DNA of 64,000 nucleotides from Escherichia coli (GTDB lineage: Bacteria; Pseudomonadota; Gammaproteobacteria; Enterobacterales; Enterobacteriaceae). The notes under the pieces are model-generated. The model saw only the letters and a list, made by a program, of their open reading frames with translations. It was not told the origin of the DNA and ran no database searches. Below, one piece after another: positions 4,065 through 51,508 of this stretch (position 1 is its first letter; each line of letters starts with the position of its first letter). The translations under genes were made by a program, and so were the position numbers. The stretch lies in assembly GCF_024223415.1 (NCBI RefSeq), contig NZ_CP100500.1. One strand, 5' to 3'.

Positions 4065-4154
4065 GATTTGCTCCTTATGAATGAGTTAGCGGTATAAATG
4101 AAAAAGCCGCGTCTCCCGGAGAAGACGCGGCCTGACCGATGAAATGAATGACGT

Positions 4155-4388
4155 TTATTGTCTGAGAAGCCCTTCACTGGCGAGCCACGCATTAAGTTGT
4201 TTGCCGGCATCGTATTCAAAATTCCAGCACCGCCAGCGCAACTGACATTCAGCATTGTGGATAACCAGCCGGAAATGCGTTCCCTGGTCATTTTCGATAA
4301 ACACATTGCGATAAGCTGTTGTGATGGCAACCGCCTGCTCTCGAGAGAAAGGGCCTTCGGGCAATAAAACAGGGTGACAGTCCGACAT
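4155..4388 (-). CDS. UPF0401/DUF905 family small protein (YkfF-like)
   Basis: 77 aa, [13 protein letters not shown]...[10 protein letters not shown]...[15 protein letters not shown] resembles the YkfF family of CP4 islands; family from memory. Confidence 0.55.
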
Positions 4389-4393
4389 ACCGG

Positions 4394-5071
4394 CTATTTT
4401 CCGATAAATTCAACGCTGGCACCGGTGGCATTACCGTCAGCACCAACCGTGACGGTCACTTTGTCGTACGCACGGTCTTCAGGATTGAACACTTCAAACT
4501 CAACCTTATTGCCTTTTACTTCGTAAGAGCCAAAATCAGCGGTTTCTGTTGTTTCCTCGTCATATTCCCGGGCGTATGCCTGCCGGGCAGCCTGCAGGAC
4601 GGAATCTTTATTAATGGCGGGTGTCTGTTTCGGGGAAAAATCGGCAAGTGATGTGACAAATTTCGGACAGACCTTCAGCATATCACCGCGGGTGAATTCC
4701 ATTCGTACACCAAATGCCTGTAAAACGGACACATCACGCTCTGCTATGGAGTGAACGGCTTTTTTGACCATTTCCGGCGCCTGTCCGACTTCCACCTCAA
4801 CAGCCCTGAATCCTGTCTGCTGATTACACATTTGTGATGTGGGGATCAGGTTACCGTTAATATTGATACGGCTGCCCAGGAGCGTCTGTACACCATTCGG
4901 GCATCCCTGCATCAGGCCGGTAATACCAATCGTGCCATTTTTCAGCATTACCAGCGCCTGACCATCTTCCGTCATGGTCTGACACCAGCCGTTTTTGACA
5001 GCCCAGTTGCCGGCGGAGGCGGAGAATGATGCCACAGTGAACAGCAGGGGAAAAAGAATTCTGGTATTCAT
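4394..5071 (-). CDS. Secreted hypothetical protein
   Basis: 225 aa with N-terminal signal peptide ([20 protein letters not shown]); same strand and spacing as neighbouring island genes. Confidence 0.6.
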
Positions 5072-5189
5072 GACTGACCTCTGAAATTAAAGAGCGTGTT
5101 ATTGATAATGACAGACGGTATACGGCAGTGGTTACCGTAATCCGTTGTCGTGTAAAGGTATACGGTTGCCACGGGGGACTCCGGGGCGC

Positions 5190-6074
5190 TCAGAACAGGT
5201 GATCCCACAGTGTGACCAGCAGGTGGATAATGCGGTCCCGGGTTTTGCGCAGAAGCTGTAACATCCAGGCCGGAAAACTGAAACGGGCAACGGCGTCGTC
5301 AAAACTTTTCCCGATGGTTTCACCAAAAGTCTGTTGTGCGTGTTTCCGGGCCTGTTCAGAGCGGTTTTCCCCCCGGATATGTGAATAAACCGCACTGGTT
5401 GCCTGTGGTGGCAGTGCGTGGATCATCAGCGACACAAACGCCGGAAGGTTCCAGCCGACAGGTGCGGCAACGGAGAGTACCGGAAATGATGAAGGGAACA
5501 GGGTTGCCACCCGGGCTGTCACCGTCGCCAGTGAGAGCGCCTGCTGACGGGACGGGCATTTTTCTGTGTCGTTCCATTCTTCAGCAGGAAACACGCGATC
5601 GGCATGGCTGAGAACAAACAGAAAACGCGAGGGATCTGCACCTTCATTCAGTAAAAACTGATGCATGGCAATATCAGCAGCATACGCACGTTCATCAGCC
5701 CGCAGGATCCAGATAATCAGATCCAGTTCGGGCAGTAACTGACTGTAAAGTGCCCGGTATTCCTGATCATGCTGTGGTGTTTCGCCAGTGCCGGGCAGAT
5801 CGACCAGCGTCATTCTTCGTTCACCGGGCTGAAAGGTAAGACGATGAGCCTGACGGGTGCAGCCGTTCAGCGGATGCGTGGCGCAGACACGGGACTGAAA
5901 AATGGCATTGCACAGGCTGCTTTTTCCGGCACCGGATTTACCCATAATGCCAATAACGGGTTCGTACTGAATGACGCTGCGAAGATGTTCAAGGATTTTC
6001 TGGCGAATTTCTTCAGGAAGAAAGGTCAGATGTGACTTTACGTGTGCGGAGAGGGAAGAATGGCTGAATGACAT
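5190..6074 (-). CDS. Island GTPase (YeeP/YkfA/YfjP family)
   Basis: P-loop GIMGKSGAGKSS and DLPGTGE motifs; 294 aa. Confidence 0.85.
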   Translation of the reverse strand: MSFSHSSLSAHVKSHLTFLPEEIRQKILEHLRSVIQYEPVIGIMGKSGAGKSSLCNAIFQSRVCATHPLNGCTRQAHRLTFQPGERRMTLVDLPGTGETPQHDQEYRALYSQLLPELDLIIWILRADERAYAADIAMHQFLLNEGADPSRFLFVLSHADRVFPAEEWNDTEKCPSRQQALSLATVTARVATLFPSSFPVLSVAAPVGWNLPAFVSLMIHALPPQATSAVYSHIRGENRSEQARKHAQQTFGETIGKSFDDAVARFSFPAWMLQLLRKTRDRIIHLLVTLWDHLF

Positions 6075-6174
6075 ACCGTTATCCTGTTGATTTCACTGAA
6101 CCGGATCACATTAATCCGGCCTATCAGTCAGGTAATATGGACGTGAAAATTTTTCCATTGACGGGAAGAAGAGT

Positions 6175-8981: not shown

Positions 8982-9713
8982 ATGAATCAACCAATACACA
9001 ATGCTTACTGGTTATCCCGTTTTGACAGCCTTCTCGACAGTGCCCTGTCGCAGCACCGTGCCGTCTCGTTAATCCGGGTGGATTTACGTTTCCCTGAGTA
9101 TATGCCTGTCACCATCATGGATCCCGATCCGGATTCAGCGGTGATTTCTCGTTTTTTCGAATCCCTGAAAGCCAAAATCCAGGCTTACCAGCGGAAAAAA
9201 CGACGTGCCAACAAGCGTGTGCGTGCAACCACTCTGCGTTATTTCTGGTGTCGGGAGTTTGGCAAGGAAAAAGGCAGGAAACATTATCACGTGATATTGC
9301 TGCTCAACAAAGATACCTGGTGCTCGCCAGGGGATTTCAGCGAACCATCTTCGCTGGCGACGATGATCCTGGAGGCATGGTGCAGCGCCCTGCATCTTGA
9401 GGCCTGGCAAGGCGATGGCCTGGTCCATTTTTCCAGGTGGACGCCTTCCCGTAAACCAGCATCGTCTGATGCTCGCCCTTCTTCCGATGACACGCCTTTG
9501 TCGGGTGGATGTTCTGATACCAGGAAGGCTTCAGAAAAAAAGCCGGGTGAAGCCGCTGTTCTCTGGATCAAGCGTGGTGATGTGGAAGCGCTGCAGAAAG
9601 CCCGGAACAGAGCCAGTTATCTCGTGAAATATGAGACGAAGCAGCATGACGGTTCCGGGCAACGTAATTATGGTTGCAGTCGTGGGCCGGGGCGTCTGCT
9701 GGATGGCAGGTGA
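8982..9713 (+). CDS. Inovirus Gp2-family protein (YagK/YfjJ-like), copy 1
   Basis: 243 aa; HYHVILLLN motif typical of Gp2-family island proteins; preceded by a conserved leader motif. Confidence 0.8.
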   Translation: MNQPIHNAYWLSRFDSLLDSALSQHRAVSLIRVDLRFPEYMPVTIMDPDPDSAVISRFFESLKAKIQAYQRKKRRANKRVRATTLRYFWCREFGKEKGRKHYHVILLLNKDTWCSPGDFSEPSSLATMILEAWCSALHLEAWQGDGLVHFSRWTPSRKPASSDARPSSDDTPLSGGCSDTRKASEKKPGEAAVLWIKRGDVEALQKARNRASYLVKYETKQHDGSGQRNYGCSRGPGRLLDGR

Positions 9714-33978: not shown

Positions 33979-34784
33979 GCGTCAATACGGTGCTCCGTTG
34001 ACGCTTACCGTTTACCGGATAATGAGCGAAAATATCCTGTTGTTACATGACAAACCATCACGACCGCAGCGGGAACATAAAGGCCGAATATCGGTAAGGA
34101 AAGCGACCAGCGTTGATGTTCTGATGGCTTTGAGTTCGGTTGCGATGATGGCGAAAAAGTCCGGGTTACGTTCGCTCTGGACTGTTGCGATCGTGAAGCT
34201 ATCGACTGGGCATCCAATACGGGAGGTTACAATAAAGCGACAGTGCAGGATGTGATGTTAGGAGCGATAGAAAAACTCTTTGGCGATAAAGTACCGGAAC
34301 AGTCCATCCGGTGGTTGACAGATAACGGTTCAGCGTATAGAGCGCATGAAACACGGCAGTTCGCCAGAGAGTTGGATCTGGAGCCCTGCACAACGGCAAT
34401 CAGCAGCTCTCAGAGTAATGGAATGGCAGAAAGGTTAGTGAAAACGATGAAGGAAGACTACATTGCGTTCATACAGAAACCGAATGTAATAACGGCATTG
34501 CATAACCTTGCATAGGCGTTCGAGAATTACAATGAGAACCACCCGCATAGTGCGTTAGGTTATCTCTCACCACGGGAATATCGATGTCAGCGGATAACGT
34601 CACCTTAGATGTAGCAGTTGCCAAACAGTGACTCAAGGGCAGGCTTACCGCATACACTGACACTTAGCGGATCGACAGAATATTATTAACAGTTCATCAC
34701 TGAACGCTACATAATCAGAGTTGCATAAATAAAATGTTATGTTATAACATTTTAATACCGACATATGTTTTCGGATGTATATGA

Positions 34785-36773: not shown

Positions 36774-37565
36774 ATGATGAAAAATACAGGCTATATCTTA
36801 GCTCTTTGTCTGACAGCATCGGGGCATGTCCTGGCCCATGATGTCTGGATTACCGGCAAACAGGCAGAGAACAACGTTATCGCAGAGATTGGTTATGGTC
36901 ATAATTTCCCCTCAAAGGGCACGATTCCTGACAGAAGGGATTTCTTTGAAACTCCCCGGCTTTATAACGGGAAAGAGACAATAACGCTGAAGCCAACATC
37001 CACGGATTATGTCTATAAAATTGAGACTGCAGGCAACGGTAATAGCTACGTTCTGTCAACGAAAATGAAACCGGGATACTGGTCGAGAACCTCGTCAGGA
37101 TGGAAGCCTGTCAGCCGGGAGGGCAGAAATGATGTGGCATACTGTGAGTTTGTGACTAAATATGCAAAATCTTTTATTCCTGGTGAACAGCAGATGCCAG
37201 CACAACTCTATCAGTATCCAATAGGGGATGAGCTTGAAATCATTCCGTTATCCGATATCAGTCGTTTCGGTGAAGATGTGAAGCTGAAAGTTCTGTATAA
37301 AACTTCCCCGCTTGCCGGAGCCACTCTGGAGCTTGACTCTGTCAGTTATCTGAAATCATCCCGCCATACTCATGCGGCAGAGCATAAACATTCGGCTCAT
37401 AAAGCAGAACTTACCTTTGTAAGTAATGAGGACGGTATCATCACTGTACCCTCCCTTCATGTCGGGCAATGGCTAGCTAAAGTCAAAAATAAGAAAGTAT
37501 TTCAGGACAAAAACCTGTGTGATGAAACTGTCGATGTGGCAACCTTAAGCTTCTCCCGAAATTAA
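36774..37565 (+). CDS. DUF4198-like periplasmic protein
   Basis: 263 aa with signal peptide, 18 bp after the receptor stop; family from memory. Confidence 0.6.
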   Translation: MMKNTGYILALCLTASGHVLAHDVWITGKQAENNVIAEIGYGHNFPSKGTIPDRRDFFETPRLYNGKETITLKPTSTDYVYKIETAGNGNSYVLSTKMKPGYWSRTSSGWKPVSREGRNDVAYCEFVTKYAKSFIPGEQQMPAQLYQYPIGDELEIIPLSDISRFGEDVKLKVLYKTSPLAGATLELDSVSYLKSSRHTHAAEHKHSAHKAELTFVSNEDGIITVPSLHVGQWLAKVKNKKVFQDKNLCDETVDVATLSFSRN

Positions 37566-37811
37566 TAATACTATTCCTGCCCTGTAATTTACGGGCAGGG
37601 TATATCAACCGGAAATAGCCTACTGACATCCATGTATAAAGCCACATAATTATTTTGTTGATGTATCTTACCTAATACGTAAGCGTAAAGCCAATGCCGT
37701 CTGTAACTCCTGATCCTTGCAGACTAAATGTAAGCGCCCTATCAGCGACGTCTTGTGAAAATTGTCCTGTCTGGCAACAATTGCGCCCATCTATATTGAT
37801 GGACACGAACG

Positions 37812-38486
37812 ATGAATTCCCAGACAACAAAAGATATTCTCTGCTTCCGTTCTTATTTGCCTGATGCCCTACGTTTAAGATTTGAAGATAAACTGACTAT
37901 CCGAGCCATCGCTCAGCGTCTAGGTCTCAGTCATTCCACAATACATACGCTTTTTCAGCGATTTCTTGCATCCGGTATCGCATGGCCATTGCCCGATTCA
38001 GTTTCATTCGCTCAACTTGACGCCATCCTTTATGCCAACAGAAAGAAGGAATTAACAGAGCCTCAAATCAGAGAAGGCTCATGGCGAAAAGAACGGCGAA
38101 CCAGCTATAGCCGTGAATTTAAGGTCCGTCTGGCTAAGCAGGCATTACAGCCTGGTGCTGTTGTTGCCCGGATCGCCAGAGAACACGATATCAATGATAA
38201 GCTGCTGTTTAAATGGAAAAGCCAGTACGAGGACGGCTTACTGAGCGATGATGACATACAGGAATGCATGCCTGTCCCGGTGGCACTGACTGATAAGCCA
38301 GAGCCGACCAGACCAGTTACAAATCCCTTCTGGCGTAACAAGCCTGATGAGCGCCCTGAGGGGGATCCCGGAAACGTCCCACGGTGCGAGCTGCATCTTA
38401 AATCAGGTGTGGTAAAACTGTTTGACCCTCTCACTCCGGAACTGTTACGGGCGCTAATCCGCGAAATGAAAGGGGGTACCCGATGA
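37812..38486 (+). CDS. IS66-family orf1 with about 90-aa N-terminal HTH extension
   Basis: 224 aa; IAREHDINDKLLFKWKSQY core. Confidence 0.75.
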   Translation: MNSQTTKDILCFRSYLPDALRLRFEDKLTIRAIAQRLGLSHSTIHTLFQRFLASGIAWPLPDSVSFAQLDAILYANRKKELTEPQIREGSWRKERRTSYSREFKVRLAKQALQPGAVVARIAREHDINDKLLFKWKSQYEDGLLSDDDIQECMPVPVALTDKPEPTRPVTNPFWRNKPDERPEGDPGNVPRCELHLKSGVVKLFDPLTPELLRALIREMKGGTR

Positions 38487-38830
38487 TAACGCTGCCGACC
38501 GGTACCAAAATCTGGATCATCGCTGGCATCACAGATATGCGTTGTGGCTTCAATGGCCTGGCTTCGAAGGTGCAGAACACGCTGAAAGATGACCCGTTCT
38601 CCGGGCATATCTTCGTCTTCCGGGGCCGCAGTGGCAAAATGGTGAAAATACTGTGGGCCGATCGTGATGGGTTATGCCTGTTCGCCAAACGCCTGGAACG
38701 GGGCCGCTTCATCTGGCCGGTGACCCGGGAAGGGAAAGTGCACCTGACGCCAGCTCAGTTATCCATGCTACTGGAGGGGATCGCGTGGCAACATCCCAAA
38801 CGGACAGAACGGCCTGGCATCCGGATATAA
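38483..38830 (+). CDS. IS66-family TnpB (orf2)
   Basis: 115 aa; KIWIIAGITDMRCGFNGL. Confidence 0.85.
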   Translation: MITLPTGTKIWIIAGITDMRCGFNGLASKVQNTLKDDPFSGHIFVFRGRSGKMVKILWADRDGLCLFAKRLERGRFIWPVTREGKVHLTPAQLSMLLEGIAWQHPKRTERPGIRI

Positions 38831-38849
38831 CCCGTGATAAAACAAGGGA

Positions 38850-40454
38850 ATGAACAATGAACTCCCCGACGATATTGAGCTGCTTAAAGCCATGTTGCGT
38901 AAGCAACAGAGTCGGCTTCGCCAGTATACCTGTCAGGTCGCGGGCTATGAGCAGGAAATTGAACGGCTGAAAGCGCAACTCGACAGGTTGCGTCGTATGT
39001 TGTTCGGCCAGAGTTCAGAGAAAAAGCGTCATAAGCTTGAAAATCAGATCCGACAGGCAGAAAAACGACTGTCGGAACTGGAAAACCGGCTGAACACAGC
39101 CAGAAATCTTCTGGAAGATGCATCGTCAGTCACAGATTCACCTGACACCAGTCCCCCGTCAGAAAACCCGATCGCCAGTAAGCCTGAATCCCTGGGACGA
39201 AAATCTTCACGAAAACCGCTGCCGGCAGAACTTCCCCGGGAGACACATCGCCTTCTGCCTGCTGAAACCAGTTGCCCGGCCTGTGGAGGTGTTCTGAAAG
39301 AAATGGGGGAAACAATCTCAGAGCAACTGGATATCATTAATACCGCCTTTAAAGTTATTGAAACCATACGTCCCAAACGGGCCTGTAGCCGGTGCGACCA
39401 TATTGTGCAGGCGCCGGTTCCTTCAAAACCCATTGCACGCAGTTATGCCGGAGCGGGGCTTCTGGCTCATATCGTCACCGGGAAGTATGCAGACTATCTG
39501 CCGTTATACCGCCAGTCAGAAATATACCGTCGTCAGGGCGTGGAACTGAGCCGCGCCACGCTGGGGCGCTGGACCGGTGCCGTTGCTGAACTGCCGGAGC
39601 CGCTGTATGACGTGCTGCGCCAGTATGTGCTGATGCCCGGTAAAGTCCATGCGGATGATATCCCCGTTCCGGTCCAGGAGCCGGGCAGCGGTAAAACCCG
39701 GACAGCCCGGCTGTGGGTCTACGTCCGTGATGACCGCAATGCCGGTTCGGAAATGCCCCTGGCGGTCTGGTTCGCGTACAGTCCGGACCGGAAAGGCATA
39801 CATCCCTAGACTCATCTGGCCGGTTACAGCGGAGTGCTTCAGGCCGATGCTTACGGTGGCTACCGGGCGTTATACGAATCCGGCAGAATAACGGAAGCCG
39901 CGTGTATGGCTCATGCCCGGAGAAAAATCCACGATGTGCATGCAAGAGTGCCAACCGACATCACCACGGAAGCCCTGCGGCGTATCGGTGAACTGTATGT
40001 CATCGAGGCAGAAGTCCGGGGATGTTCAGCAGAACAGCGTCTGGCGGTAAGAAAAGCCAGAGCTGCGCCACTGATGCAGTCACTGTATGACTGGATACAG
40101 ACTCAGATGAAAACACTGTCGCGTCACTCGGATACGGCAAAAGCGTTCGCATACCTGCTGAAACAGTGGGATGGCCTGAACGTGTACTGCAGTAATGGCT
40201 GGGTGGAAATCGACAACAACATCGCAGAGAACGCCTTACGGGGAGTGGCCGTAGGCCGGAAAAACTGGCTCTTCGCGGGTTCCGACAGCGGTGGCGAACA
40301 TGCGGCGGTGTTGTACTCGCTGATCGGCACATGCCGTCTGAACAATGTGGAACCAGAAAAATGGCTGCGTTACGTCATTGAGCATATCCAGGACTGGCCG
40401 GCAAACCGGGTACGCGATCTGTTGCCCTGGAAAGTGGATCTGACCTCTCAGTAA
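38850..40454 (+). pseudogene. IS66-family transposase TnpC interrupted by an in-frame TAG at 39807-39809
   Basis: Two ORFs (38850-39809, 39834-40454) in the same frame; the intact copy has Glu at this position. Confidence 0.75.
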
Positions 40455-40491
40455 ATATCAATACGGTTCTGGCGAGCCGCTTACGAACAAT

Positions 40492-42205
40492 GTGAATTAT
40501 GTTAATTATGTTTTCAGGCAGATGCTTCTCTGTCTGTTATTGTTCTGGCTGCCTGTATCCTGGGCTACCGAAAGTGGCTGGTTGCGTTCTCCTGAGAATG
40601 AGCATGCCAGTATACGGATACGTGCTGATTCCGTGGTCTCCGGGGAAACACGTGTTTTGCTGGACGTTAAACTGGATAACGGCTGGAAAACTTACTGGCG
40701 CTCACCCGGATAAGGGGGGATTGCACCGTCAGTCGACTGGAAAAGTGAAACACCGGAAGTGGAGTGGTACTGGCCTGGCCTTCACGTTTTGACGTGGCCG
40801 GCATTACCACTACGGGATATCACAACACAGTCACGTTTCCCGTGGTGTTACGTGGTATATCACCTGAGAGGATCACTGGCGTACTGACCCTGCCTGTCTG
40901 CAGCAATGTCTGTCTGCTGACCGATTACCCTTTCACTGTGAATGTTTCCACACAGGATACAACATTTGCACATGATTACGCACAGGCCATGGGGAAAATT
41001 CCGCTTTCCCATGGGGTAGCGGATTCCTTAAACGCGGTTTACCGACCTGGTGGACTGCTCATTACCGCAATACGGGCAGACGGCTGGTCATCTCCGGATA
41101 TTTATCTGGATTCTGTTGATTATGCAAGCTTCGGTAAGCCGCAGATGCAGATTGACGGCAAGAATCTGCTCGCATCTGTGCCGGTCACGGACAACTGGGG
41201 AGAGGGGGCGCCGGACCTGACTGGCCAACAAGTCACACTGGTTATTGAAAGCGGCGGCCTCGCTCAGGAAAGTACGCTTACGGTTGCGGCAGGTGCAACC
41301 AAAATAGCAGAGAATGTCTTACCTCTTTGGCAGGTCACTCTGATGGCATTAGCTGGTGGACTCATTCTTAACCTGATGCCCTGTGTATTACCGGTTCTGG
41401 GGATGAAGCTGGGCTCAGTTTTACTGGTGGAAGAGAAAAACCGTCAGCAGATTCGATGTCAGTTTCTGATGTCTGTAGCCGGGATCCTTACTTCCTTTAT
41501 GGCTCTGGCTACGTTAATGACCCTTCTGCGGCTGACAAACCGGGCTCTGGGGTGGGGGATCCAGTATCAGAGTCCCTGGTTTATTGTTCTGATGACGCTG
41601 GTTATGCTGATTTTTAGTGCCAGTCTGTTTGGCCTGTTTGAGTTCCGCCTGCCTTCCGGCCTCATGACTCGTCTGGCGACATTTGGTGGTAATGGAATGT
41701 CCGGACATTTCTGGCAGGGCGCTTTTGCGACTCTTCTGGCGACACCGTGTAGCGCCCCCTTCCTCGGTACGGCAGTGGCAGTGGCGCTGACGGCATCACT
41801 ACCCACTCTGTGGGGGATTTTCTTTGCACTGGGCGTGGGAATGAGTCTTCCGTGGCTGTTGGTGGCGTTGCGACCCGGGCTTGCGTTGTGTTTGCCCCAT
41901 CCGGGAGGATGGATGAATATTTTGCGTCGGGTGCTTGGCCTGATGATGCTGGGTTCTGCCTTCTGGCTGACAACACTGTTACTGCCACACTTGGGAGTAT
42001 CCTCACACAGTACAACGAAAGAACAGGTTGTCTGGCAGCCTCTCAGTGAACAGGCGATTAAGGAGGCGCTGGCTCAGCATAAGCGGGTATTTATCGATGT
42101 GACTGCAGACTGGTGTGTTACCTGTAAATTCAATAAATACAATGTGCTGCAAAAAGACAATGTGCAGAAGTCGCTGCAGGAGGCGGATGTTGTTGCACTG
42201 CGTGG
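40492..42205 (+). pseudogene. scsB: ScsB-like (DsbD-family) thiol:disulfide interchange gene, decayed
   Basis: In-frame TAA at 40714-40716, 5-bp tandem duplication TGGCC near 40769-40779, 3' end truncated by IS629-like element at 42206. Confidence 0.7.
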
Positions 42206-42259
42206 TGAACCGCCCCGGGAATCCTGGAGACTAAACTCCCTGAGAAAGAGGTAAACAGA

Positions 42260-42586
42260 ATGACTAAAAATACTCGTTTTTCCCCCGAAGTCCGTCAGAG
42301 GGCGATTCGTATGGTTCTGGAAAGTCAGGGCGAATATGACTCACAGTGGGCGGCAATTTGTTCCATTGCCCCAAAGATTGGCTGTACACCGGAGACTCTG
42401 CGTGTCTGGGTACGCCAGCATGAGCGGGATACCGGAGGCGGTGATGGCGGGCTCACCACCGCTGAACGTCAGCGTCTGAAAGAGCTGGAACGTGAAAATC
42501 GTGAACTGCGCCGCAGTAACGATATCCTTCGCCAGGCTTCCGCTTATTTTGCGAAGGCGGAGTTCGACCGCCTCTGGAAAAAGTGA
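42260..42586 (+). CDS. IS629-like transposase OrfA
   Basis: [30 protein letters not shown]...; 108 aa. Confidence 0.85.
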
Positions 42587-43473
42587 TGCCACTGCTGGAT
42601 AAGCTGCGTAAGCTGTACGGGGTCGGACCGGTATGCAGTGAACTACATATTGCCCCGTCAACGTATTACCACTGTCAGCAACAGCAGCATCATCCTGATA
42701 AACGCAGCGCCCGTGCGCAGCGTGATGACTGGCTGAAGAAAGAGATACAGCGCGTATACGATGAAAATCACCAGGTGTACGGTGTGCGTAAAGTCTGGCG
42801 TCAGTTGTTACGGGAAGGTATCAGAGTGGCCAGATGCACTGTGACACGTCTTATGGCGGTTATGGGTTTTGCCGATGTTCTCCGGGGTAAAAAGGTCCGC
42901 ACTACCGTCAGCCGGAAAGCCGTTGCCGCAGGCGACCGCGTAAACCGTCAGTTTGTGGCAGAACGTCCTGACCAGTTGTGGGTGGCTGATTTTACTTACG
43001 TCAGCACATGGCAGGGGGTCGTCTATGTGGCGTTCATCATTGATGTGTTTGCCGGATACATCGTGGGGTGGCGGGTCTCATCGTCTATGGAAACGACATT
43101 CGTGCTGGATGCTCTGGAGCAGGCGTTATGGGCCCGTCGACCGTCCGGCACAGTCCATCACAGTGATAAAGGTTCTCAGTATGTATCGCTGGCCTACACA
43201 CAGCGGCTTAAGGAAGCCGGATTACTGGCATCAACAGGAAGTACTGGTGACTCGTATGACAACGCGATGGCGGAGAGCATCAATGGCCTTTACAAAGCGG
43301 AGGTAATACACCGTAAGAGCTGGAAAAACCGGACAGAAGTGGAGCTGGCCACACTCACGTGGGTGGACTGGTATAACAATCGACGATTGCTGGAAAGGCT
43401 GGGCCATATCCCACCGGCAGAAGCAGAAAAAGCTTATTATGCTTCCATCGGAAACGATGATCTGGCAGCCTGA
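42583..43473 (+). CDS. IS629-like transposase OrfB
   Basis: 296 aa with HSDKGSQY and DNAMAES motifs. Confidence 0.85.
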
Positions 43474-43515
43474 GTTCACAGATAAAACACTCTCCAGGAA
43501 ACCCGGGGCGGTTCA

Positions 43516-43790
43516 CTCCGGAGGTGGCGGCTTTATCTGCCAGGGGAGAGAATGTGATGACGATTGCATACCGTTCCGGCTCATCTGATGAGGTGAGCCG
43601 GAAGCTGGCTCTCAGGAGGAACAGGTTCCCGGTGATCAATGATGCTGATGGCACAATATCCCGTTTATGGAGAATTAGAGTAACCCCGACGTTCGTAGTG
43701 ATATCGAAGGGGCGGGTAATCTCCACAACCAGCGGCTGGACCAGTTCCTGGGGGATGAAGCTACGACTGCGGTGGGCCACAATAGTCTGA
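43516..43790 (+). pseudogene. Thioredoxin-like ScsD 3' fragment
   Basis: ...GENVMTIAYRSG...FPVINDADG...VTPTFVVISKGRVISTTSGWTSSWGMKLRL directly after the IS629-like right end. Confidence 0.45.
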
Positions 43791-44119
43791 GCAGAAGACA
43801 GCCTTCTGAGAAGGAAACCTTTCAGAAGACGCCCTTACCAAAGTTGGTGATGGAAAGACTGTTGGCAGAGAGACAGATGGACATATCCGGTCGCGCTTAT
43901 GAGACAAGTCTGTGGTCACAGAGCCTGTTTATCACTCAGTGTAAATGTCTTTTCTCAGTCGGGGGCCGTCCAGACGATAACTGGGTCCGATAATAAAGCT
44001 ACATCGCCCATTTTTGTGATGCTGCCTGGATTACCGGCTGTACGGCCTTGTACTGAGAAACAGAAAAAGACTTCAGTCACCCGGCGAAAACGGTCCCTGT
44101 CCCCCCGTTACCTTATTCG

Positions 44120-44239
<120 letters not shown>

Positions 44240-44301
44240 TACCCATCTGAAACCCGAACAGTTGTCCATACGCTATAACGCATTTGCAAGGATGGGTAAT
44301 C

Positions 44302-44585
44302 ATGAGTCAGCCAAATCAGCTTTGTGTGGGTATTGATGTTTCTAAAACAACTCTTGACATTGCTACTGCTAACAACGAGTTTGCTCAGTTTACTTCTTGT
44401 AACGACACCGATGGTTTTTAGCTCATCATTGCTGAATTGAGAAATCATTCGGTGGCGCTGGTTTTGATGGAGGCTACTGGTGGGTTTGAAGCTGCTGTAG
44501 CCTGTTCACTTTAGGCTGAAGGTTTTGATATAGCTGTTATCAATCCCAGACAGGCCAGGAATTTCTCTCGTGCTAAAATCAGTTA
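44302..44585 (+). pseudogene. IS110-family transposase N-terminal fragment with in-frame stops
   Basis: MSQPNQLCVGIDVSKTTLDIA...MEATGGFE...DIAVINPRQARNF interrupted by TAG codons. Confidence 0.55.
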
Positions 44586-44787
44586 TTTCCCGAGGTTGGA
44601 TAGCCCTGTCCGATCAACATTTCCCAACATAGCTCACAAAACAGACACTTTATTTATTGACTTTGTTTTAATATGTGATAAATACGGAGAAGTGGTCTAA
44701 CAGGTTTAATGATTGGTCGGACAAGATGATAATAAATGGCATTTTATATCAACCAATTTTCATGTTTATACATAGAGGAGGGATTAT

Positions 44788-45777
44788 ATGAAAATTAGGT
44801 TATTTATCCATTCGTTATTTTATTCATCAGTTCTGGTGACTTTGCTTATCAATAGCGTAAATGCCGCAGAAAAAGTGACATTAAAATTGGCACACAACCT
44901 TGAACGCAGTCATGTTGTACACCAGACTTTTGAACATCTGGCAAACGAGGTAAAACAACTTTCTAATGGCAATATTGTCATTCGTATATACCCCAGTAGC
45001 CAGATGGGTAATGCGCGAGAAACTATGGAGTTGTTACAAAATGGCGCACTGGATATGACCAAAGGTTCCGCCAGTGATCTGGAGTCTTTTGATAATATTT
45101 ATGCTATCTATAATTTGCCGTTCTTATTTAAAGATCAGGCGCACTTCAACAAAGTGGTTTTTGGTGAAGTTGGTAAAGAAATTATGGACTCAACAAAAGA
45201 CAAAGGCTTTTTTGCTTTATCAGCTTATGTAGCGGGTACTCGCAGTTTCTATGCGAAAAAACCGATTACTAAGCCAGAAGATCTTAAAGGGCTGAAAATT
45301 CGTGTTCAGCCAAGCCCGACCACCATCAAAATGATTGAACTGATGGGGGGCTCACCCACTCCAATTTCATTTGGCGAAGTTTATACTGCGATGCAGCAAG
45401 GTGTAGTAGATGGCGCAGAAAATAACGTGCCTTCCTGGGTGCAGACTCGACATATCGAAATTGCCAAAGTCTTTTCTGAAGATGAACATGCCTCAATTCC
45501 TGACTTTTTGGTTATCTCCACCAAAACATGGAATAAATTAACCCCAGAACAGCAACAAATCCTCGAAACAGCGGCGAAGAAATCCGAAGCTTATCAACAA
45601 AAATTGTGGGAAAAAATTGACGCTGACACACGTGCTCAGGCGAAAGCTATGGGTGGTGAAATCGTTAAGGTTGATAAAGCCCCATTCCGTGCCGCAGTTC
45701 AACCTCTGTTTGACGACTTCAAAAAAGATCCAAAACAAGCTGCTTTGTTAGAGAAATTCGACAACGCTGCTCAATAA
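44788..45777 (+). CDS. TRAP transporter substrate-binding subunit (DctP family)
   Basis: 329 aa with signal peptide; LKGLKIRVQPS and DGAENN motifs. Confidence 0.85.
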   Translation: MKIRLFIHSLFYSSVLVTLLINSVNAAEKVTLKLAHNLERSHVVHQTFEHLANEVKQLSNGNIVIRIYPSSQMGNARETMELLQNGALDMTKGSASDLESFDNIYAIYNLPFLFKDQAHFNKVVFGEVGKEIMDSTKDKGFFALSAYVAGTRSFYAKKPITKPEDLKGLKIRVQPSPTTIKMIELMGGSPTPISFGEVYTAMQQGVVDGAENNVPSWVQTRHIEIAKVFSEDEHASIPDFLVISTKTWNKLTPEQQQILETAAKKSEAYQQKLWEKIDADTRAQAKAMGGEIVKVDKAPFRAAVQPLFDDFKKDPKQAALLEKFDNAAQ

Positions 45778-45812
45778 TATTTCGGGCCAGTCTCTGGCCC
45801 TGATTTTCCAGG

Positions 45813-46325
45813 ATGCTTACAATGATATTTAACCGCCTGAAACTTGCGGTAGACCGCGTCATTGCCGCGTTTTCTGTCGCCGTCATGCTTGCTCTGGTTG
45901 TATGCGTAGTCTGGCAAGTATTTAGCCGCTACGTACTTAACCAGCCAAGTACATTAACCGATGAGCTGGCACGCTTTTTGATGATCTGGGTAGGATTATT
46001 AGGTGCTGCATATACCGTCGGCGCGCAGAGACATCTCTCTATCGATTTATTTGCTCTCGCCCTGAATAAGCGCAAGCAATTACTTCTTAGTATAGTCATT
46101 AACATTCTCATTTTAGGTTTTGCCGGTTCGGTCATTGTGACTGGTGGCCTGAAATTAATTGATAAAACACTGGCAACATCACAGGTATCTGCCGCGATGC
46201 AAATACCGATGGGATACGTATATATCATTCTGCCATTAAGTGGATTGGTGATGATGTTTTATGCCTTGTGTTTTATTAATCAAAGCATTCAACAACTGAA
46301 ACAACCTGCGCAGGAGGCCAGTTAA
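45813..46325 (+). CDS. TRAP transporter small permease (DctQ family)
   Basis: 170 aa, four predicted TM helices. Confidence 0.8.
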   Translation: MLTMIFNRLKLAVDRVIAAFSVAVMLALVVCVVWQVFSRYVLNQPSTLTDELARFLMIWVGLLGAAYTVGAQRHLSIDLFALALNKRKQLLLSIVINILILGFAGSVIVTGGLKLIDKTLATSQVSAAMQIPMGYVYIILPLSGLVMMFYALCFINQSIQQLKQPAQEAS

Positions 46326-47626
46326 TGGATAGTTATATCGCGCTTACACTATTTGGCTGTTTTTTTGTGCTGGTCTTTATTGGTGTGCCCATTTCGTTCT
46401 CAATCGGTATTGCGACTGTAGCTTCAATGCTGTTGATGTTTCCCTGGGATATCGCGGCAATCACTGTTTCGCAACGATTGGCTAATGGACTGGATAACTT
46501 TGCCCTGTTGGCAATCCCCTTTTTCATCTTTGCCGGAACACTGATGAACAGCGGCGGTATTGCGATACGTTTGATTAACCTCGCCCAGGTAATGGTTGGC
46601 CGCGTTCCTGGTTCGCTTGGTCATGTGAACGTCCTGGCGAATATGATGTTTGGTTCCATTTCTGGTTCAGCCGTTGCGGCAGCTGCTGCCGTTGGTGGCA
46701 CACTGAATCCCATTCAGACCAAAGAAGGTTATGATCCGGCATTTTCTACCGCTGTAAACGTCTCATCTTGTATTACTGGATTACTGATACCGCCCTCAAA
46801 CGTGTTAATTGTATTTTCCCTGACAGCTGGCGGCGTTTCTGTAGCATCGCTATTTATGGCGGGATATTTGCCAGGGATCTTAATGGGTCTCGCGGTAATG
46901 ATAGTCTGCGGCATTATTGCTAAACGCCGTGGCTACCCACTTTCAGAAAGAGCAACCTTTGCTCAGGCATGTAAAGCGTTTCTGGATGCCTTACCAAGTT
47001 TGCTTCTGGTGTTCATTGTAATGGGCGGCATTCTGGGCGGCATTTTTACCGCAACTGAAGCGTCAGCAATTGCCGTGGTCTACACATTTATTCTCTCGGT
47101 GCTGATTTACCGGGAAGTAAAATGGCGCGATTTACCCAAACTGATTCTGGAGTCGGTTGTTACCACTTCGATTGTATTACTGTTGATCGGTTTTTCCGTG
47201 GGCATGTCCTGGGCAATGACCAATGCTGATATTCCTTATATGATCAGCGACGCGTTGATGGGGATTTCTGATAACCCACTGGTCATATTGCTGCTGATTA
47301 ATATCGTCTTATTAATTGTCGGCATCTTTATGGACATGACACCGGCTGTACTAATCTTCACACCAATCTTCTTGCCGATTGCACAAGAGCTGGGAATGGA
47401 TCCGGTACATTTCGGTATTATGATGGTGGCCAACCTTTGTATTGGGCTGTTAACACCGCCGGTGGGTAGTGCGCTATTTGTTGGTTGTTCTATTTCAGGT
47501 GTGAAGATTCAACATTTGCTTAGACCATTGCTACCCTTTTATACAGCATTGCTAGTCGCATTGATGATGATCACTTACATTCCACAAATCTCTTTATTTA
47601 TCCCACAATTTCTAGGGCTGATGTAA
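46325..47626 (+). CDS. TRAP transporter large permease (DctM family)
   Basis: 433-aa polytopic membrane protein, abuts dctQ. Confidence 0.85.
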   Translation: MDSYIALTLFGCFFVLVFIGVPISFSIGIATVASMLLMFPWDIAAITVSQRLANGLDNFALLAIPFFIFAGTLMNSGGIAIRLINLAQVMVGRVPGSLGHVNVLANMMFGSISGSAVAAAAAVGGTLNPIQTKEGYDPAFSTAVNVSSCITGLLIPPSNVLIVFSLTAGGVSVASLFMAGYLPGILMGLAVMIVCGIIAKRRGYPLSERATFAQACKAFLDALPSLLLVFIVMGGILGGIFTATEASAIAVVYTFILSVLIYREVKWRDLPKLILESVVTTSIVLLLIGFSVGMSWAMTNADIPYMISDALMGISDNPLVILLLINIVLLIVGIFMDMTPAVLIFTPIFLPIAQELGMDPVHFGIMMVANLCIGLLTPPVGSALFVGCSISGVKIQHLLRPLLPFYTALLVALMMITYIPQISLFIPQFLGLM

Positions 47627-47638
47627 ATAATTAATAGC

Positions 47639-47660
47639 CGGACAATTTTTATTGTCCGGT
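47639..47660 (+). terminator. Hairpin after dctM (CCGGACAAT tttt ATTGTCCGG)
   Basis: 9-bp perfect stem 12 bp after the stop; only a short A/T tail follows. Confidence 0.4.
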
Positions 47661-47670
47661 AAAATTCATC

Positions 47671-47764
47671 GTAAGCGCTCCTTCTGTGCCGTCTTGTGGT
47701 GGTTGTCCTGTCTGGCAACAATCGCGTCCATCTATTGATGGACACGAACGATGAATTCTCAGAC
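47671..47764 (+). mobile_element. IS66-family left-end fragment truncated by IS2
   Basis: GTAAGCGCTCC terminus and an 80-bp match to 37738-37825, ending at the orf1 start codon where IS2 begins. Confidence 0.6.
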
Positions 47765-47775
47765 TGGATTTGCCC

Positions 47776-48681
47776 CTATATTTCCAGACACCTGTTATCA
47801 CTTAACCCATTACTGGCTTGCTGCCGTAGATATTCCCGTGGCGAGCGATAACCCAGTGCACTATGCGGATGCCATTCGTTATAATGCTCGAACGCCTCTG
47901 CAAGGTTCTTTGCTGCCGTTAACCCGTCTGGTTTAGGCATGATACTGATGTAGTCACGCTTTATCGTTTTCACGAAGCTCTCTGCTATGCCGTTACTCTC
48001 CGGACTCCGCACCGCCGTGCTCTTCGGTTCAAGCCCCAACATCCGGGCAAACTGCCGTGTTTCATTAGCCCGGTAGCATGAACCATTATCCGTCAGCCAC
48101 TCTACTGGAGACGCCGGAAGCTCGTTGCCGAAGCGGCGTTCCACCGCTCCTGGCATGACGTCCTGTACTGTTTCACTGTTGAAGCCGCCCGTAGTGACCG
48201 CCCAGTGCAGTGCCTCACGGTCACAGCAGTCCAGCGCGAACGTGACTCGCAGTTTTTCTCCGTTATCACAGCGGAACTCGAACCCGTCAGAGCACCATCG
48301 CTGATTACTTTCTTTCACAGCCACTCTGCCTGTATGTGCCCGTTTCGATGGCGGTACAGCAGGTTTTCGCTCAAGCAACAGCGCATTCTGGCGCATGATC
48401 CGGTAAACACGTTTGGCATTGATCGCAGGCATACCATCAAGTTCTGCCTGTCTGCGAAGCAGCGCCCATACCCGACGATAACCATACGTGGGCAGCTCTC
48501 CGATAACATGGTGTATACGGAGAAGCACATCCGTATCATCTGAGTGACGGCTGCGGCGACCATCTTTCCAGTCATCGGTTCGTCTGAGAATGACGTGCAA
48601 CTGCGCACGCGACACCCGGAGACAACGGCTGACTAAGCTTACTCCCCATCCCCGGGCAATAAGGGCGCGTGCGCTATCCAC
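47776..48681 (-). CDS. insD: IS2 transposase InsD
   Basis: 301 aa with DDE motifs. Confidence 0.9.
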
Positions 48682-49004
48682 TTTTTTGCCCGTCCATATT
48701 CAACGGCTTCTTTGAGGAGTTCATTTTCCATCGTTTTCTTGCCGAGCAGGCGCTGGAGTTCTTTAATCTGCTTCATGGCGGCAGCAAGTTCAGAGGCAGG
48801 AACAACCTGTTCTCCGGCGGCGACAGCAGTAAGACTTCCTTCCTGGTATTGCTTACGCCAGAGAAATAACTGGCTGGCTGCTACACCATGTTGCCGGGCA
48901 ACGAGGGAGACCGTCATCCCCGGTTCAAAGCTCTGCTGAACAATTGCGATCTTTTCCTGTGTGGTAAGCCGTCTGCGTTTCTCCGGTCCTAAGACATCAA
49001 TCAT
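48639..49004 (-). CDS. insC: IS2 InsC
   Basis: 121 aa from [12 protein letters not shown]... Confidence 0.85.
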
Positions 49005-49095
49005 CTGCTCTCCAATGACTAGTCTAAAAACTAGTATTAAGACTATCACTTATTTAAGTGATATTGGTTGTCTGGAGATTCAGGGGGCCAGTCTA

Positions 49096-49190
49096 TTCGG
49101 CAGCACTGTTGCCCTGTATCGAACAGGCCAGAGAGGATGTCCGTACCCTGCGTCATCTGCAGCTTCTGCACCAGAACCGGTGAATATCAC
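49096..49190 (+). pseudogene. 3' fragment of a yeeW-like gene cut by IS2
   Basis: Encodes ...[28 protein letters not shown], matching the C-terminus of YeeW at 685-1038. Confidence 0.5.
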
Positions 49191-49211
49191 TCACCACGCT
49201 TCATTACCCTG

Positions 49212-49243
49212 ACGCCAGCCTGAATACGGCTGGCGTTTTCGTT
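49212..49243 (+). terminator. Rho-independent terminator-like hairpin
   Basis: CGCCAGCC tgaatac GGCTGGCG followed by TTTTCGTTT. Confidence 0.5.
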
Positions 49244-49260
49244 TATAAACCAAAAGGAAA

Positions 49261-49420
49261 AATGATGATGTCAGATACCACACTCTCCCGCCCGGAGGTG
49301 GTCAGCGGGCATACGGACGTTATCTATTCCACCTCAGTCTGCCACATTCTGGCTGTACGAAAGAGTACACTGTTGCCAATCGACACAATTATCCGGCATC
49401 AAGTGAGCGATATCAGTTAA
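49261..49420 (+). pseudogene. Truncated second copy of the DUF4942-like gene
   Basis: MMMSDTTLSRPEVVSGHTDVIYSTSVCHILAVRKSTLLPIDTIIR then diverges and stops; paralogous to the minus-strand gene at 1-600. Confidence 0.5.
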
Positions 49421-49820
49421 CCGATATAGATGGGGAAGATGCTTTTATCCGGATTGGATCTATCGCGATGGTGCGAGTACCACTTGATGCAATGGAGCCT
49501 GTCGAGGCAGATGACGAGTAACAGAGCTCGGTATCTCAATCAGGACCTGATTGTCCTGGTTCGATGCCGAAAACCAGTGATTTTTCGTGTTGGTATCTGT
49601 GTTGGTATAGGATGGTGTTGTTTATTATTAACAATTTTAAATCATGAGGTTAAATCGCATGTTTGAGTCAGGCCTTCGCATCAATATCAAAACAATCAAT
49701 AAATAAGTCCTTTAACCTAGCCACGACCAATCATTGATCAACCACGAAATCCTCTCCGAAACACAGTCCCAATCCCTAAACCCTACGCTCAACATCGAAA
49801 CCCGCTTATCACCATCCCCC

Positions 49821-50690
49821 TCATCCCCTGAACACCTCCCGCCGGTGCCACGCCACAAACCCCTCCTGGGGATAGCATTCTTTCCCCATCGGCAAGGTAA
49901 TCGGCTTACCATCAAAATCCCAGAACAACCTGCCAACGATGCCTCCGCCGTTCACCGCCGGCGAAACCTGGATGCGCATATCCTCATCCAGACCAATGGA
50001 TCCTTTATCAAAATCCTTATGGTGAATCGCGCAGAGCGCCAGGCCGTTAGGGATTTCGCAGGGGCCGCCGTGCTGCTTCCACTTGATATGGGCCGCTTCC
50101 AGGGCGACGGAGGTATTATCATGGCGCATATTGAAGCCGCAGATAGCGCACTCATAGTTATAGGCGCGCAGCACCTGCTGGCGAAAATGCGGGTCGCGCT
50201 CTTTGCGGATCTGCAGCAGATCAAACCCCATCTCTTCAGCCAGTTCTTCCTGAATACTCTCCGGAAAGTGCGCCTCAAGGATCTGATGGGCGAGGGTATT
50301 GATCAGCTTCTTATTTCTGTTAAGTAACGCAAAATGCTGCTCATCAAAGCCGCCGGCGACGTGGCAGAGCTCCAGCTCTTTGCCGGGCGGCTGTCGGCTG
50401 CCCTGGGTTGAGCACTGTTCGCTGTTGTGTAGCTCCCAGAAGCCGTCGCCTTTCAGGCGCCAGAAGGGCATGTCCGGCCGGTACTGGCGGCGCTGCGGGC
50501 CAAAGCGTTCCAGCAGGCTATGCAGCTCATCACGTATCTCCGAGGCGTAGTCGAACATCCGCGCATGGCCGCGCTGGTATTGCGAGAGGACGTACAGCAG
50601 CAATAGTGGTTTATGCGGCGCACGCTGTTCGCCTTTGCGCCAGATGGTGATGTTCTCGATCGCGTGTTGCAGGGTCGTGCTGGAGGGCAT
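49821..50690 (-). CDS. HNH endonuclease with N-terminal recognition-like domain (putative type IV restriction enzyme)
   Basis: C-terminal HNH motif ECAICGF...AAHIKW...NGLALCAIHHKDFD; GC-rich; start at MPSSTTLQ. Confidence 0.75.
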   Translation of the reverse strand: MPSSTTLQHAIENITIWRKGEQRAPHKPLLLLYVLSQYQRGHARMFDYASEIRDELHSLLERFGPQRRQYRPDMPFWRLKGDGFWELHNSEQCSTQGSRQPPGKELELCHVAGGFDEQHFALLNRNKKLINTLAHQILEAHFPESIQEELAEEMGFDLLQIRKERDPHFRQQVLRAYNYECAICGFNMRHDNTSVALEAAHIKWKQHGGPCEIPNGLALCAIHHKDFDKGSIGLDEDMRIQVSPAVNGGGIVGRLFWDFDGKPITLPMGKECYPQEGFVAWHRREVFRG

Positions 50691-50869
50691 AGCGTTACAT
50701 TGGCAGCTAAATAAATGCGATGATGCTCGCAAAATCCTTGCCGATCAACCTACCAGATGCGGCGATTCTACGTGGATCGCGATTTAATTATCACTGCCAG
50801 TTATTTGTTCGAAAAGACCATAGCTTTCTATTTATACTCAAGCTTCGCGCCATCAGATAGCTATGTCTT

Positions 50870-51508
50870 ATGAAAAAACTACCGGACCATTTATCCAGGG
50901 AATGCATCATCGCCGCCATTCGCGCTTACGATGCAGGCGTTGCGCATCAGTTTAAAAGCGCGCGTCTGTATGAGATCGAGTTTGAGGGGCGTCGGTATCC
51001 TTCAAAAGCCATCGTCGGGTTAGCGGCCACGCTTGCGACGGGAACGGAATTTACCCCGGCGGATTTCAGCGGGGGGATTAAATCAAAATGCGTGCGTCTG
51101 TTACTGGAGCAAGGATTTACGATCGCGTCGCAGGGCGCTGGCGATGACGAGGTTGCGCTTTTCCCCGATGAGGGGCAGACGACCATGGAGTACGTGGAAG
51201 GGGCGGCGTTGCAGGTGGTGGTCAATCGCTATGAGCGCGACCGTCAGGCTCGTCAGGCGGCGCTTCGCCTGCATGGCTGCCAGTGTCAGGTATGCGGTCT
51301 GGATATGGCCAGCCGCTATGGCGATATCGGCCAGGGCTTTATCCATATCCACCATCTCATCCCGCTGGCCGGGATAAAGCAGGACTACCGCCTGAACCCT
51401 GAAACCGATCTGATCCCGGTATGTCCCAACTGCCATGCGATGCTGCACCGGCGAGATCCGCCGTTTACCCCCGAAGAGCTGAAGGCCCGGCTGCGCCCCA
51501 CAGACTGA
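50870..51508 (+). CDS. McrA-like HNH endonuclease
   Basis: C-terminal CQVCG...HIHHLIPLAG...DLIPVCPNCHAMLH resembles the E. coli McrA HNH region; divergent from the preceding gene. Confidence 0.75.
   Translation: MKKLPDHLSRECIIAAIRAYDAGVAHQFKSARLYEIEFEGRRYPSKAIVGLAATLATGTEFTPADFSGGIKSKCVRLLLEQGFTIASQGAGDDEVALFPDEGQTTMEYVEGAALQVVVNRYERDRQARQAALRLHGCQCQVCGLDMASRYGDIGQGFIHIHHLIPLAGIKQDYRLNPETDLIPVCPNCHAMLHRRDPPFTPEELKARLRPTD

Follow-up and report, generated by a model that had tools for sequence, protein, structure and literature searches.

Downstream from a captured TRAP transporter operon, the analyzed window, a 64,000-nucleotide stretch of Escherichia coli DNA (contig NZ_CP100500.1), contains in direct succession the 94-bp left end of an IS66-family element, a complete IS2 read from its IRR tip to its IRL tip, and the 3' tail of a DUF957-family open reading frame. 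The TRAP operon (44649..47663, plus strand) comprises dctP (44788-45777), dctQ (45813-46325), and dctM (46325-47626), and a terminator hairpin is predicted from its sequence at 47638-47659. It displays 95-96% identity to the hemW-yggM TRAP operon, which is present in 1461 E. coli genomes, and the homology stops 7 bp short of the IS66 left end. The window is an island of accessory DNA from an E. coli of avian or extraintestinal type: islands of APEC strains match its left 25 kb at 95-97% identity, and E. coli H8 and others match its right part at 99.8%. No tRNA gene that could act as an island anchor was detected in the window, and a promoter scan of positions 47500-49400 revealed no sigma-70-like site.

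The IS66-family fragment (47671..47764, plus strand) is ISCro1-like. It starts with GTAAGCGCTCC at 47671 (terminal GTAAGCG) and comprises the leader, an ATG codon at 47751, and 14 nucleotides of tnpA (MNSQ-). The fragment is colinear with positions 37730-37825 of the window and with sequences from strain 104, 64.1, and plasmid D1-B. Its identity is 85.6% to positions 37730-37825, 93.8% to the element of plasmid D1-B, which adjoins an annotated ISCro1-family transposase, and 98.9% to a left end that strain 104 and numerous E. coli islands carry beside DUF4198, and that continues there with CAGACAACAAAAG. The latter remnant was itself truncated in every island examined. The fragment is thus not, as the initial annotation implied, a third copy of the element at 37.7-40.5 kb, since it is far closer to the common island remnant than to this neighboring copy. 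The fragment is a remnant rather than an element because only 14 nucleotides of tnpA are left and no IS66 sequence occurs past IS2 within the window; the loss of the rest of the element was correctly recognized from the outset. The tnpA-tnpB-tnpC set (TnpB_IS66, DDE_Tnp_IS66) is thus missing, the full set being found in the neighboring copy. Elements of the IS66 family generate an 8-bp target duplication; the right end of the element from which the remnant derives is absent.

The neighboring ISCro1-like copy (37730..40484, plus strand; tnpA 37812-38486, tnpB 38483-38830) had been put forward as an intact reference spanning 37679-40484. It starts at 37730, directly after a separate 51-bp IS66-like end (37679-37729), and its tnpC gene is split by an internal stop into segments 38850-39809 and 39834-40454.

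The IS2 copy (IS3 family; 47765..49095, minus strand) is complete. Its length (1331 bp) and tips are those of IS2A of K-12, from which it differs by 36 mismatches in 1331 bases (97.3% identity). The donor end, IRR, spans 41 bp (47765..47805, minus strand), with its tip TGGATTTGCCCC at 47765, and the recipient end, IRL, spans 42 bp (49054..49095, minus strand), starts with TAGACTGGCCCC, and has its tip, CCAGTCTA, at 49095 (end lengths and donor and recipient roles from PMC3299598). On the minus strand, orfA (48639..49004, 121 aa, coordinates transferred from K-12 insC1) and orfB (47776..48681, 301 aa, DDE integrase core) overlap at an A6G -1 frameshift site (AAAAAAG, 48681-48687, IS2 nucleotides 409-415). 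Pfam matches were HTH_Tnp_1 (E 5.6e-20) for orfA and rve (2.6e-18), rve_3, and HTH_21 for orfB. The terminal repeats, the orfA/orfB pair with its A6G site, and the identity to the reference assign the copy to IS2, and it is apparently functional. IS2 does abut a broken IS66-family left end, as initially described; it is not inserted exactly at the start codon, since its first base falls within codon 5 of tnpA, 14 nucleotides past the A of the ATG codon (47751).

IS2 was multicopy in the matching genomes, with a median of 6 and a maximum of 44 matching places per genome. Copies located at orthologous sites differ in patches, and these mosaics show that exchange between copies is continuing. Because of this patchiness, SNPs designating the window's copy as a hybrid IS2 were discarded as decisive evidence.

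On the other side of IS2, the window contains the remaining 3' end of a CP4-type island (49096..49683, plus strand), which displays 99.3% identity to positions 9001-9589 of the UM146 sequence (L020) and whose homology to strain 042 stops at 49680. The last gene of the CP4-type module is represented by the 3' fragment of a DUF957-family open reading frame (49097..49183, plus strand; 28 codons and a stop). The 28 C-terminal residues are identical to those of the UM146 DUF957 protein (WP_000839272.1) and similar to those of the 042 protein (WP_000839290.1). RefSeq annotates the same fragment in H8 as 'missing N-terminus'. The name DUF957 is that of the RefSeq annotation, the Pfam DUF957 model matching neither the fragment nor the full-length 042 protein. 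Identification of the right flank as yeeW (DUF5983), as in the initial annotation, was rejected: yeeW occupies positions 2441-2635 of the K-12 sequence (L014) and homology to the window starts at position 2679, that is, 44 bp past the end of yeeW in CP4-44. The DUF5983 gene is located upstream from DUF957 in both 042 and UM146. A second, diverged CP4-type module is present in inverted orientation at 470-6100.

The left joint (47764/47765) reads GTAAGCGCTCC...GAACGATGAATTCTCAGAC on the IS66 side followed by TGGATTTGCCCC on the IS2 side, and the right joint (49095/49096) reads GGGGGCCAGTCTA followed by TTCGGCAGCAC. The corresponding 31-mers are GAACGATGAATTCTCAGACTGGATTTGCCCC and GGGGGCCAGTCTATTCGGCAGCACTGTTGCC. 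The 5-mer at the IRR tip (CAGAC, 47760..47764) and the 5-mer at the IRL tip (TTCGG, 49096..49100) share 0 of 5 bases, indicating that the window's IS2 is not flanked by a 5-bp target duplication. Perfect 5-bp repeats flank other IS2 copies, such as GCTAC in 042, ATTCC beside DUF4198 in GF60, and GGGTC at focH in strain 9; a target repeat is a trait of the insertion event and not of the element. The left target is uninterrupted in strain 104 and plasmid D1-B (TCTCAGACAACAAAAG, with the continuation mentioned above). The right target is uninterrupted in the intact DUF957 gene of UM146 (GGATTCGGCAGCAC; 99.3% identity over 589 bp), in which TTCGG occurs once. Since the two 5-mers differ and each flank has its own uninterrupted counterpart, IS2 joins two different targets in the window, and it lacks a 5-bp repeat because its flanks derive from these different targets. 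The window's IS2 is a rearrangement joint anchored on IS2, not a simple insertion. Insertion of IS2 into a pre-existing IS66/DUF957 joint, followed by mutation of the duplication, would account for the presence of a complete IS2 and for nothing further. The probability of this scenario is close to nil: it is effectively refuted by the flank sequences, which have no base in common in the two 5-mers, and an IS2-free joint of both flanks was found in no search, the test for an H8-type empty site being also negative.

The exact left joint of the window had no other case in 5426 complete E. coli genomes, the best match being a joint shorter by 11 bp. Used as a query in plasmids, it gave no match, and the pattern GGACACGAAYGATG-N(0-30)-TGGATTTGCCCCTATAT gave 0 matches in genome contigs and 0 in metagenome contigs. 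This joint is a private variant and not a new kind of feature.

Close relatives of the window display four other arrangements at the same IS2 or at most 11 bp from the joint, in agreement with the recombination hotspot proposed in the initial annotation. IS2 and the right flank occur without the window's left flank in nine other complete E. coli genomes (H8 and eight additional strains). The joint between IRL and TTCGG-DUF957' was identical in the five genomes checked by sequence (H8, ET479, ES1, GF43, and EC0585). All five have GGGAATTCAG, which corresponds to position 12773 of the window, next to the IRR tip, and 35 kb are absent. The similarity to these strains changes abruptly across IS2. 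On the right, the window differs from H8 by 2 mismatches in 6405 bp (99.97% identity) and from ET479, ES1, GF43, and EC0585 by 1-4 mismatches in 3405 bp. On the left, the identity of the five H8-type strains to the window is only 95.6-97.8% (2.2-4.4% divergence). Within IS2 itself, the comparison of the window with H8 revealed 0 fixed differences in the IRL-proximal segment of about 650 bp and 4-6 fixed differences in the IRR-proximal 681 bp.

A second type of joint between the IS66 end downstream from TRAP and IS2, shorter by 11 bp (CGATG followed by IS2), is carried at a second, roughly 1% diverged locus by GF60, TUM9803, and ECCNB12-2. In GF60, this joint is accompanied by a different IRL flank (CTCCC), and the whole TRAP-IS66-IS2 unit of this second GF60 locus is not surrounded by a 5-bp duplication (TTTCC versus CTCCC). 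Each flank of the window thus occurs elsewhere with a different partner, as would be expected if two IS2 copies had recombined.

These comparisons bear on the order of events proposed in the initial annotation, namely that IS2 was inserted into the IS66 element, at codon 5, and that the same or a following event deleted rightwards from IRL to DUF957. Part of this proposal stands, since no target duplication is present and the IS66 remainder is gone, and the adjacency of IS66 and IS2 at the second, diverged locus suggests that this adjacency is old. The one-step rightward order itself, although possible, appears quite improbable. IRL does not act as a donor in step I of IS2 transposition (PMC3299598), so that a one-ended deletion on the IRL side would be unexpected. 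In addition, the joint of IRL with DUF957' is found in the nine other genomes, with a different IRR partner in 5/5 of those checked, and DUF957, in which TTCGG is uninterrupted in UM146, plausibly provided the primary target. Owing to the shared IRL joint, the unequal divergence on the left and on the right, and the UM146 target, the existence of two IS2 target sites that were later joined, by recombination between IS2 copies or by a transposase event on the IRR side, fits the data at least as well.

We favor the view that the window's IS2 is the joint produced by homologous recombination between two originally separate IS2 insertions, to which we assign a probability of roughly 0.45, slightly short of even odds. 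One IS2 copy would have been inserted at CAGAC in codon 5 of tnpA, in an ISCro1-like IS66 element located just downstream from the TRAP operon. A second, similarly oriented copy would have targeted TTCGG in codon 37-38 of DUF957, the gene located at the 3' end of a CP4-type island. The two would then have been joined by RecA-type crossing-over within the 1.3-kb IS2 homology, either through a deletion, both direct copies being in one island, or through a replacement during gene transfer with IS2 serving as one homology arm. The product would be a single IS2 with the IS66 flank on the IRR side and the DUF957 flank on the IRL side, and the locus would have lost the 5' part of the DUF957 module together with all that followed in the IS66 element. 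We infer both the existence of the two parental simple insertions and the homologous, rather than transposase-catalyzed, nature of the exchange. Homologous recombination is preferred to a one-ended deletion because of the shuffling of the flanks and the step in divergence across IS2.

The reciprocal joints predicted by recombination between two copies are GGGGGCCAGTCTACAGACAACAAAAGATATC (IRL followed by the rest of IS66) and GATAAAACAGGTTCGGTGGATTTGCCCC or GAACGGATTCGGTGGATTTGCCCC (the 5' part of DUF957 followed by IRR). No contiguous match was detected in the 5426 complete E. coli genomes for a chimeric query built from the 5' part of DUF957 up to TTCGG and IRR, for IRL joined to CAGACAACAAAAG (IRL, CAGAC, and the IS66 continuation), for the H8-type joint of IRL with TTCAGGGTGTC (IRL, TTCAG, and the island continuation), or for the IS2-free H8 joint. 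The failure to find the predicted parental and reciprocal joints in these genomes argues against recombination between two copies. In addition, the distribution of SNPs within IS2 could stem from later gene conversion instead of the founding crossover, and marks of transposase activity are present at the same IS2 in two relatives, ECCNB12-2 and GF60. Similarities found beside other IS2 copies matched the flanks only in part and were dismissed as unrelated sequence.

ECCNB12-2 matches positions 44700-47760 of the window with 100% identity and has the segment 34550-47759 in the opposite orientation. Position 34550 adjoins the IS2 IRR tip, and position 34554 adjoins nucleotide 89 of IS66. Both inversion joints contain GTGCG, as a 5-bp inverted duplication, and exactly 5 bp (CAGAC) were lost. 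In GF60, the locus at 5.22 Mb is 99.85% identical to the window up to position 37630 and continues directly with position 49097 onwards (99.92% identity). This locus lacks positions 37631-49096, with one end of the deletion lying 1 bp beyond the IRL tip. The deletion joint, which is a single case among the 5426 genomes, is located 385 bp from a new IS2 copy with an ATTCC duplication.

The same two genomes bear on the possibility that the joint is an artifact, two contigs ending in IS2 having been wrongly joined during assembly. The 1.3-kb IS2 repeat is present many times per genome and the exact left joint is absent from all other records searched, as expected for a chimera. Nevertheless, an artifact is very unlikely. 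The independent complete genome of GF60 links the same flanks through a deletion ending 1 bp from the IRL tip, a joint that is hard to explain unless an ancestor had IS2 and the TRAP segment between these flanks, which argues against a chimera. ECCNB12-2 likewise has the IRR tip at the far end of an inverted segment whose other end is nucleotide 89 of IS66.

Because of the marks detected in ECCNB12-2 and GF60, a transposase-driven origin is a real alternative to recombination between two copies, although we consider it rather unlikely. According to this scheme, a single IS2 was inserted into DUF957 at TTCGG, and its IRR end was later joined to nucleotide 94 of IS66, deleting all the intervening DNA and leaving IS2 and the IRL joint in place. 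The joining could have occurred by a 'sloppy' first strand transfer into the element's own flank or by attack of a nearby target by an IS2-dimer junction. IRR is the sole donor in step I of IS2 transposition, IRL acting only as the recipient (PMC3299598). Transfer of the strand to ectopic DNA instead of the second end, and strand switching, have been proposed for deletions caused by IS3-family elements (bioRxiv 10.1101/2023.06.07.543989). IS2 also forms dimers, and the active IR-IR junction of IS30 dimers gives rise to deletions and inversions (PMC9333248). In keeping with an event on the IRR side, relatives sharing the IRL/DUF957' joint vary on the IRR side. The 5-bp signature of ECCNB12-2, with its IRR tip at 34550, GTGCG at both joints, and loss of CAGAC, and the 1-bp signature of GF60 are those expected from the chemistry of the IS2 transposase. 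Finally, the searches of the 5426 complete genomes yielded no parental joint that would point to a second IS2 copy. Against this scheme, a simple internal deletion predicts equal similarity of both flanks to the H8 type, whereas the observed divergence was 2-4% on the left and 0.03% on the right. An event on the IRR side alone also leaves unexplained the IS66/IS2 joint with a different IRL flank at the second locus, and one-ended deletion by IS2 is itself a proposed mechanism.

The window's IS2 might also be viewed as bearing the natural traces of a series of transposase-driven rearrangements that began at the IRR donor end, a reading that we regard as doubtful. The first and second arrangements would be the deletion to nucleotide 94 of IS66 in the window and the 35-kb deletion of the H8 type. 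The third would be the ECCNB12-2 inversion, which involves only one IS2, carries an inverted 5-bp duplication of the target, and has lost exactly 5 bp from the donor flank. The fourth would be an excision-type deletion in GF60, ending 1 bp outside IRL, the size of the minicircle spacer.

The breakpoints on the left side of IS2 are themselves clustered, three of them occurring within 11 bp in the IS66 5' region. The uninterrupted form of this region, TGAATTCTCAGACAACAAAAGATATCAC, aligned with positions 14-38 of IS2 IRL with a score of 24, compared to 14.3 +/- 2.1 for shuffled sequences, of which 3/2000 reached this score (post hoc test). The 5' end of the IS66 variant thus resembles the transposase-binding part of IRL and might be a preferred target. 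As evidence for an IS2 hot spot, this resemblance was set aside and retained as an observation, the orientation and the distance being unsuited to a surrogate recipient end and the test being post hoc. Neither the clustering nor the resemblance to IRL has a clear mechanism.

An insertion sequence devoid of target repeats at a rearrangement joint is a textbook phenomenon, and all the components of the locus (IS2, the remnant of an ISCro1-like IS66 element, and a CP4-type island 3' end) are known, with no new kind of element. The locus has little significance beyond annotation and reflects ordinary IS biology. In the annotation, the 94-bp IS66 remnant should not be considered as a gene, IS2 should be marked as lacking target repeats, and the right fragment should be designated as DUF957 and not yeeW. 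The joint shows how the end of a CP4-type island came to be connected with a captured TRAP module and with pathogenicity-island cargo, and illustrates that IS2 copies provide portable homology and breakpoints in the islands of avian and extraintestinal E. coli. The alternative joints present in relatives could provide natural material for testing models of deletion and excision by IS3-family elements.

Comparison with known systems was made for each component and for the joint itself. The IS66 remnant shares the terminal GTAAGCG, the leader, and the tnpA start (MNSQT) with the copy at 37730 and with ISCro1-like elements adjoining transposases annotated as 'ISCro1 family'; it differs in that the window keeps 94 bp only, and in that it is a distinct variant. 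The right flank corresponds to the last 590 bp of the 3' module of CP4-44/CP4-57-type islands (order yeeR-yeeS-yeeT-cbeA-cbtA-yeeW-DUF957), with 99.3% identity to UM146 and 88% to K-12 CP4-44 downstream from yeeW. In contrast to these islands, the module of the window is cut inside DUF957, all upstream genes including yeeW being missing at this locus. The IS2 copy has the same length, terminal sequences, orfA/orfB organization with the A6G site, and HTH_Tnp_1 and rve domains as K-12 IS2A, but its sequence is a mosaic of IS2 haplotypes and it lacks the 5-bp direct repeat. With respect to other IS-anchored joints, such as those produced by recombination between insertion sequences or by IS629 deletions involving IEE, the window differs by the lack of parental joints in the searches of 5426 complete E. 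coli genomes. It resembles them in the following respects: the insertion sequence is retained, the target repeats are mismatched, the flanks are continuous with two uninterrupted targets, and relatives display alternative joints.

The 94-bp left end of an ISCro1-like element of the IS66 family (47671-47764) adjoins the IRR tip of IS2 (47765-49095, minus strand), and its 5' region contains three IS2-related breakpoints within 11 bp (47753/4, 47759/60, and 47764/5). In the uninterrupted IS66 variant at locus L005, the sequence TGAATTCTCAGACAACAAAAGATATCAC (L005 5081-5109) is similar to positions 14-38 of the IS2 IRL, which form the protein-binding domain. The part of this stretch surviving in the window is 47752-47764. 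The local alignment score was 24, as compared to 14.3 ± 2.1 for shuffled sequences, with 3 of 2000 shuffles and 2 of the 1782 70-mers of the window reaching the same value. The IRL-like stretch was also considered as a surrogate recipient end, a role that its orientation does not match.

The IS66/IS2 joint creates a 61-codon chimeric ORF on the plus strand (47751-47936), combining the start of IS66 tnpA (MNSQ) with the antisense of the 3' end of IS2 orfB. A simple scan revealed no sigma-70-like promoter for this ORF, which showed no sign of function. IS2 occupies the same orthologous site, with common flanks, in five strains (L001 and L008 to L011), but the copies differ from one another at up to about 10 positions, the substitutions being clustered (e.g., at 537-599 and 870-1139). 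This pattern indicates that the IS2 copies of a genome frequently undergo gene conversion with each other.

The TRAP transporter operon (44649-47663), whose homology stops 7 bp short of the IS66 left end, is a 95-96% identical copy of the operon found in the hemW-yggM interval of 1461 E. coli genomes. In the window, the operon has been relocated to the island. A second CP4-type 3' module (470-6100, minus strand), encoding a GTPase, DUF932, antirestriction, cbeA/cbtA-like, yeeW-like, and DUF957 proteins, occupies the left edge of the window in inverted orientation, with 85-91% identity to UM146 and 85% identity to 49095-49398. The cargo is thus flanked by two outward-facing island ends. Just past the island end, genes encoding a phosphorothioated-DNA-binding restriction endonuclease (minus strand) and an HNH endonuclease (49821-51508) precede GH43, an MFS transporter, and an accessory xylA, according to the annotation of H8 and GF60. 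In UM146, a 74% identical endonuclease allele adjoins nanM and nanC.

The neighboring IS66-family copy (37730-40484) has a tnpC gene split by a stop codon into 38850-39809 and 39834-40454. A separate IS66-like terminal fragment of 51 bp (37679-37729), beginning with GTAAGCGTAAAGCC, lies directly in front of this copy, and neither of the two candidate left ends shows an 8-bp target repeat. The corresponding insertion site of strain 104 (flank CAGACTAAAT) is occupied by the other IS66 variant.

E. coli GF60 (NZ_CP172185.1) lacks 37631-49096, a loss that extends over this IS66-family copy, the DsbD genes, and the TRAP operon as well as the IS66 remnant and IS2. The resulting joint (L007 15700-15745; window 37630/37631 to 49096/49097), CTGACA(T)CGGCAGC, was found in GF60 alone among 5426 complete E. 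coli genomes. It lies 1 bp outside the IRL tip of IS2, an offset equal to the length of the IS2 minicircle spacer. A new IS2 with an ATTCC repeat is likewise present in DUF4198 of GF60 (window-equivalent 37242-37246). The deletion looks like transposition-associated excision with strand switching.

Sequence comparison revealed that segment 34550-47759 is inverted in ECCNB12-2 (NZ_CP033635.1; L003 9095-9150 and L006 2795-2850) relative to the window. The target was supplied by an IS3-family pseudo-element (about 31190-34650) displaying 71-75% identity to IS2 and interrupted by an ISEc23-like element of the IS66 family (about 31.5-34.0 kb). The inversion is associated with a single IS2, the IRR tip of which abuts window-equivalent 34550. 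Both joints carry GTGCG (window 34550-34554), in inverted orientation, and the old IS66 flank has lost exactly 5 bp, CAGAC (window 47759-47765 region). To our knowledge, an inversion involving one IS2 is predicted by no single known pathway. The gain and the loss, each of 5 bp, correspond to the distance separating the catalytic centers of IS2.
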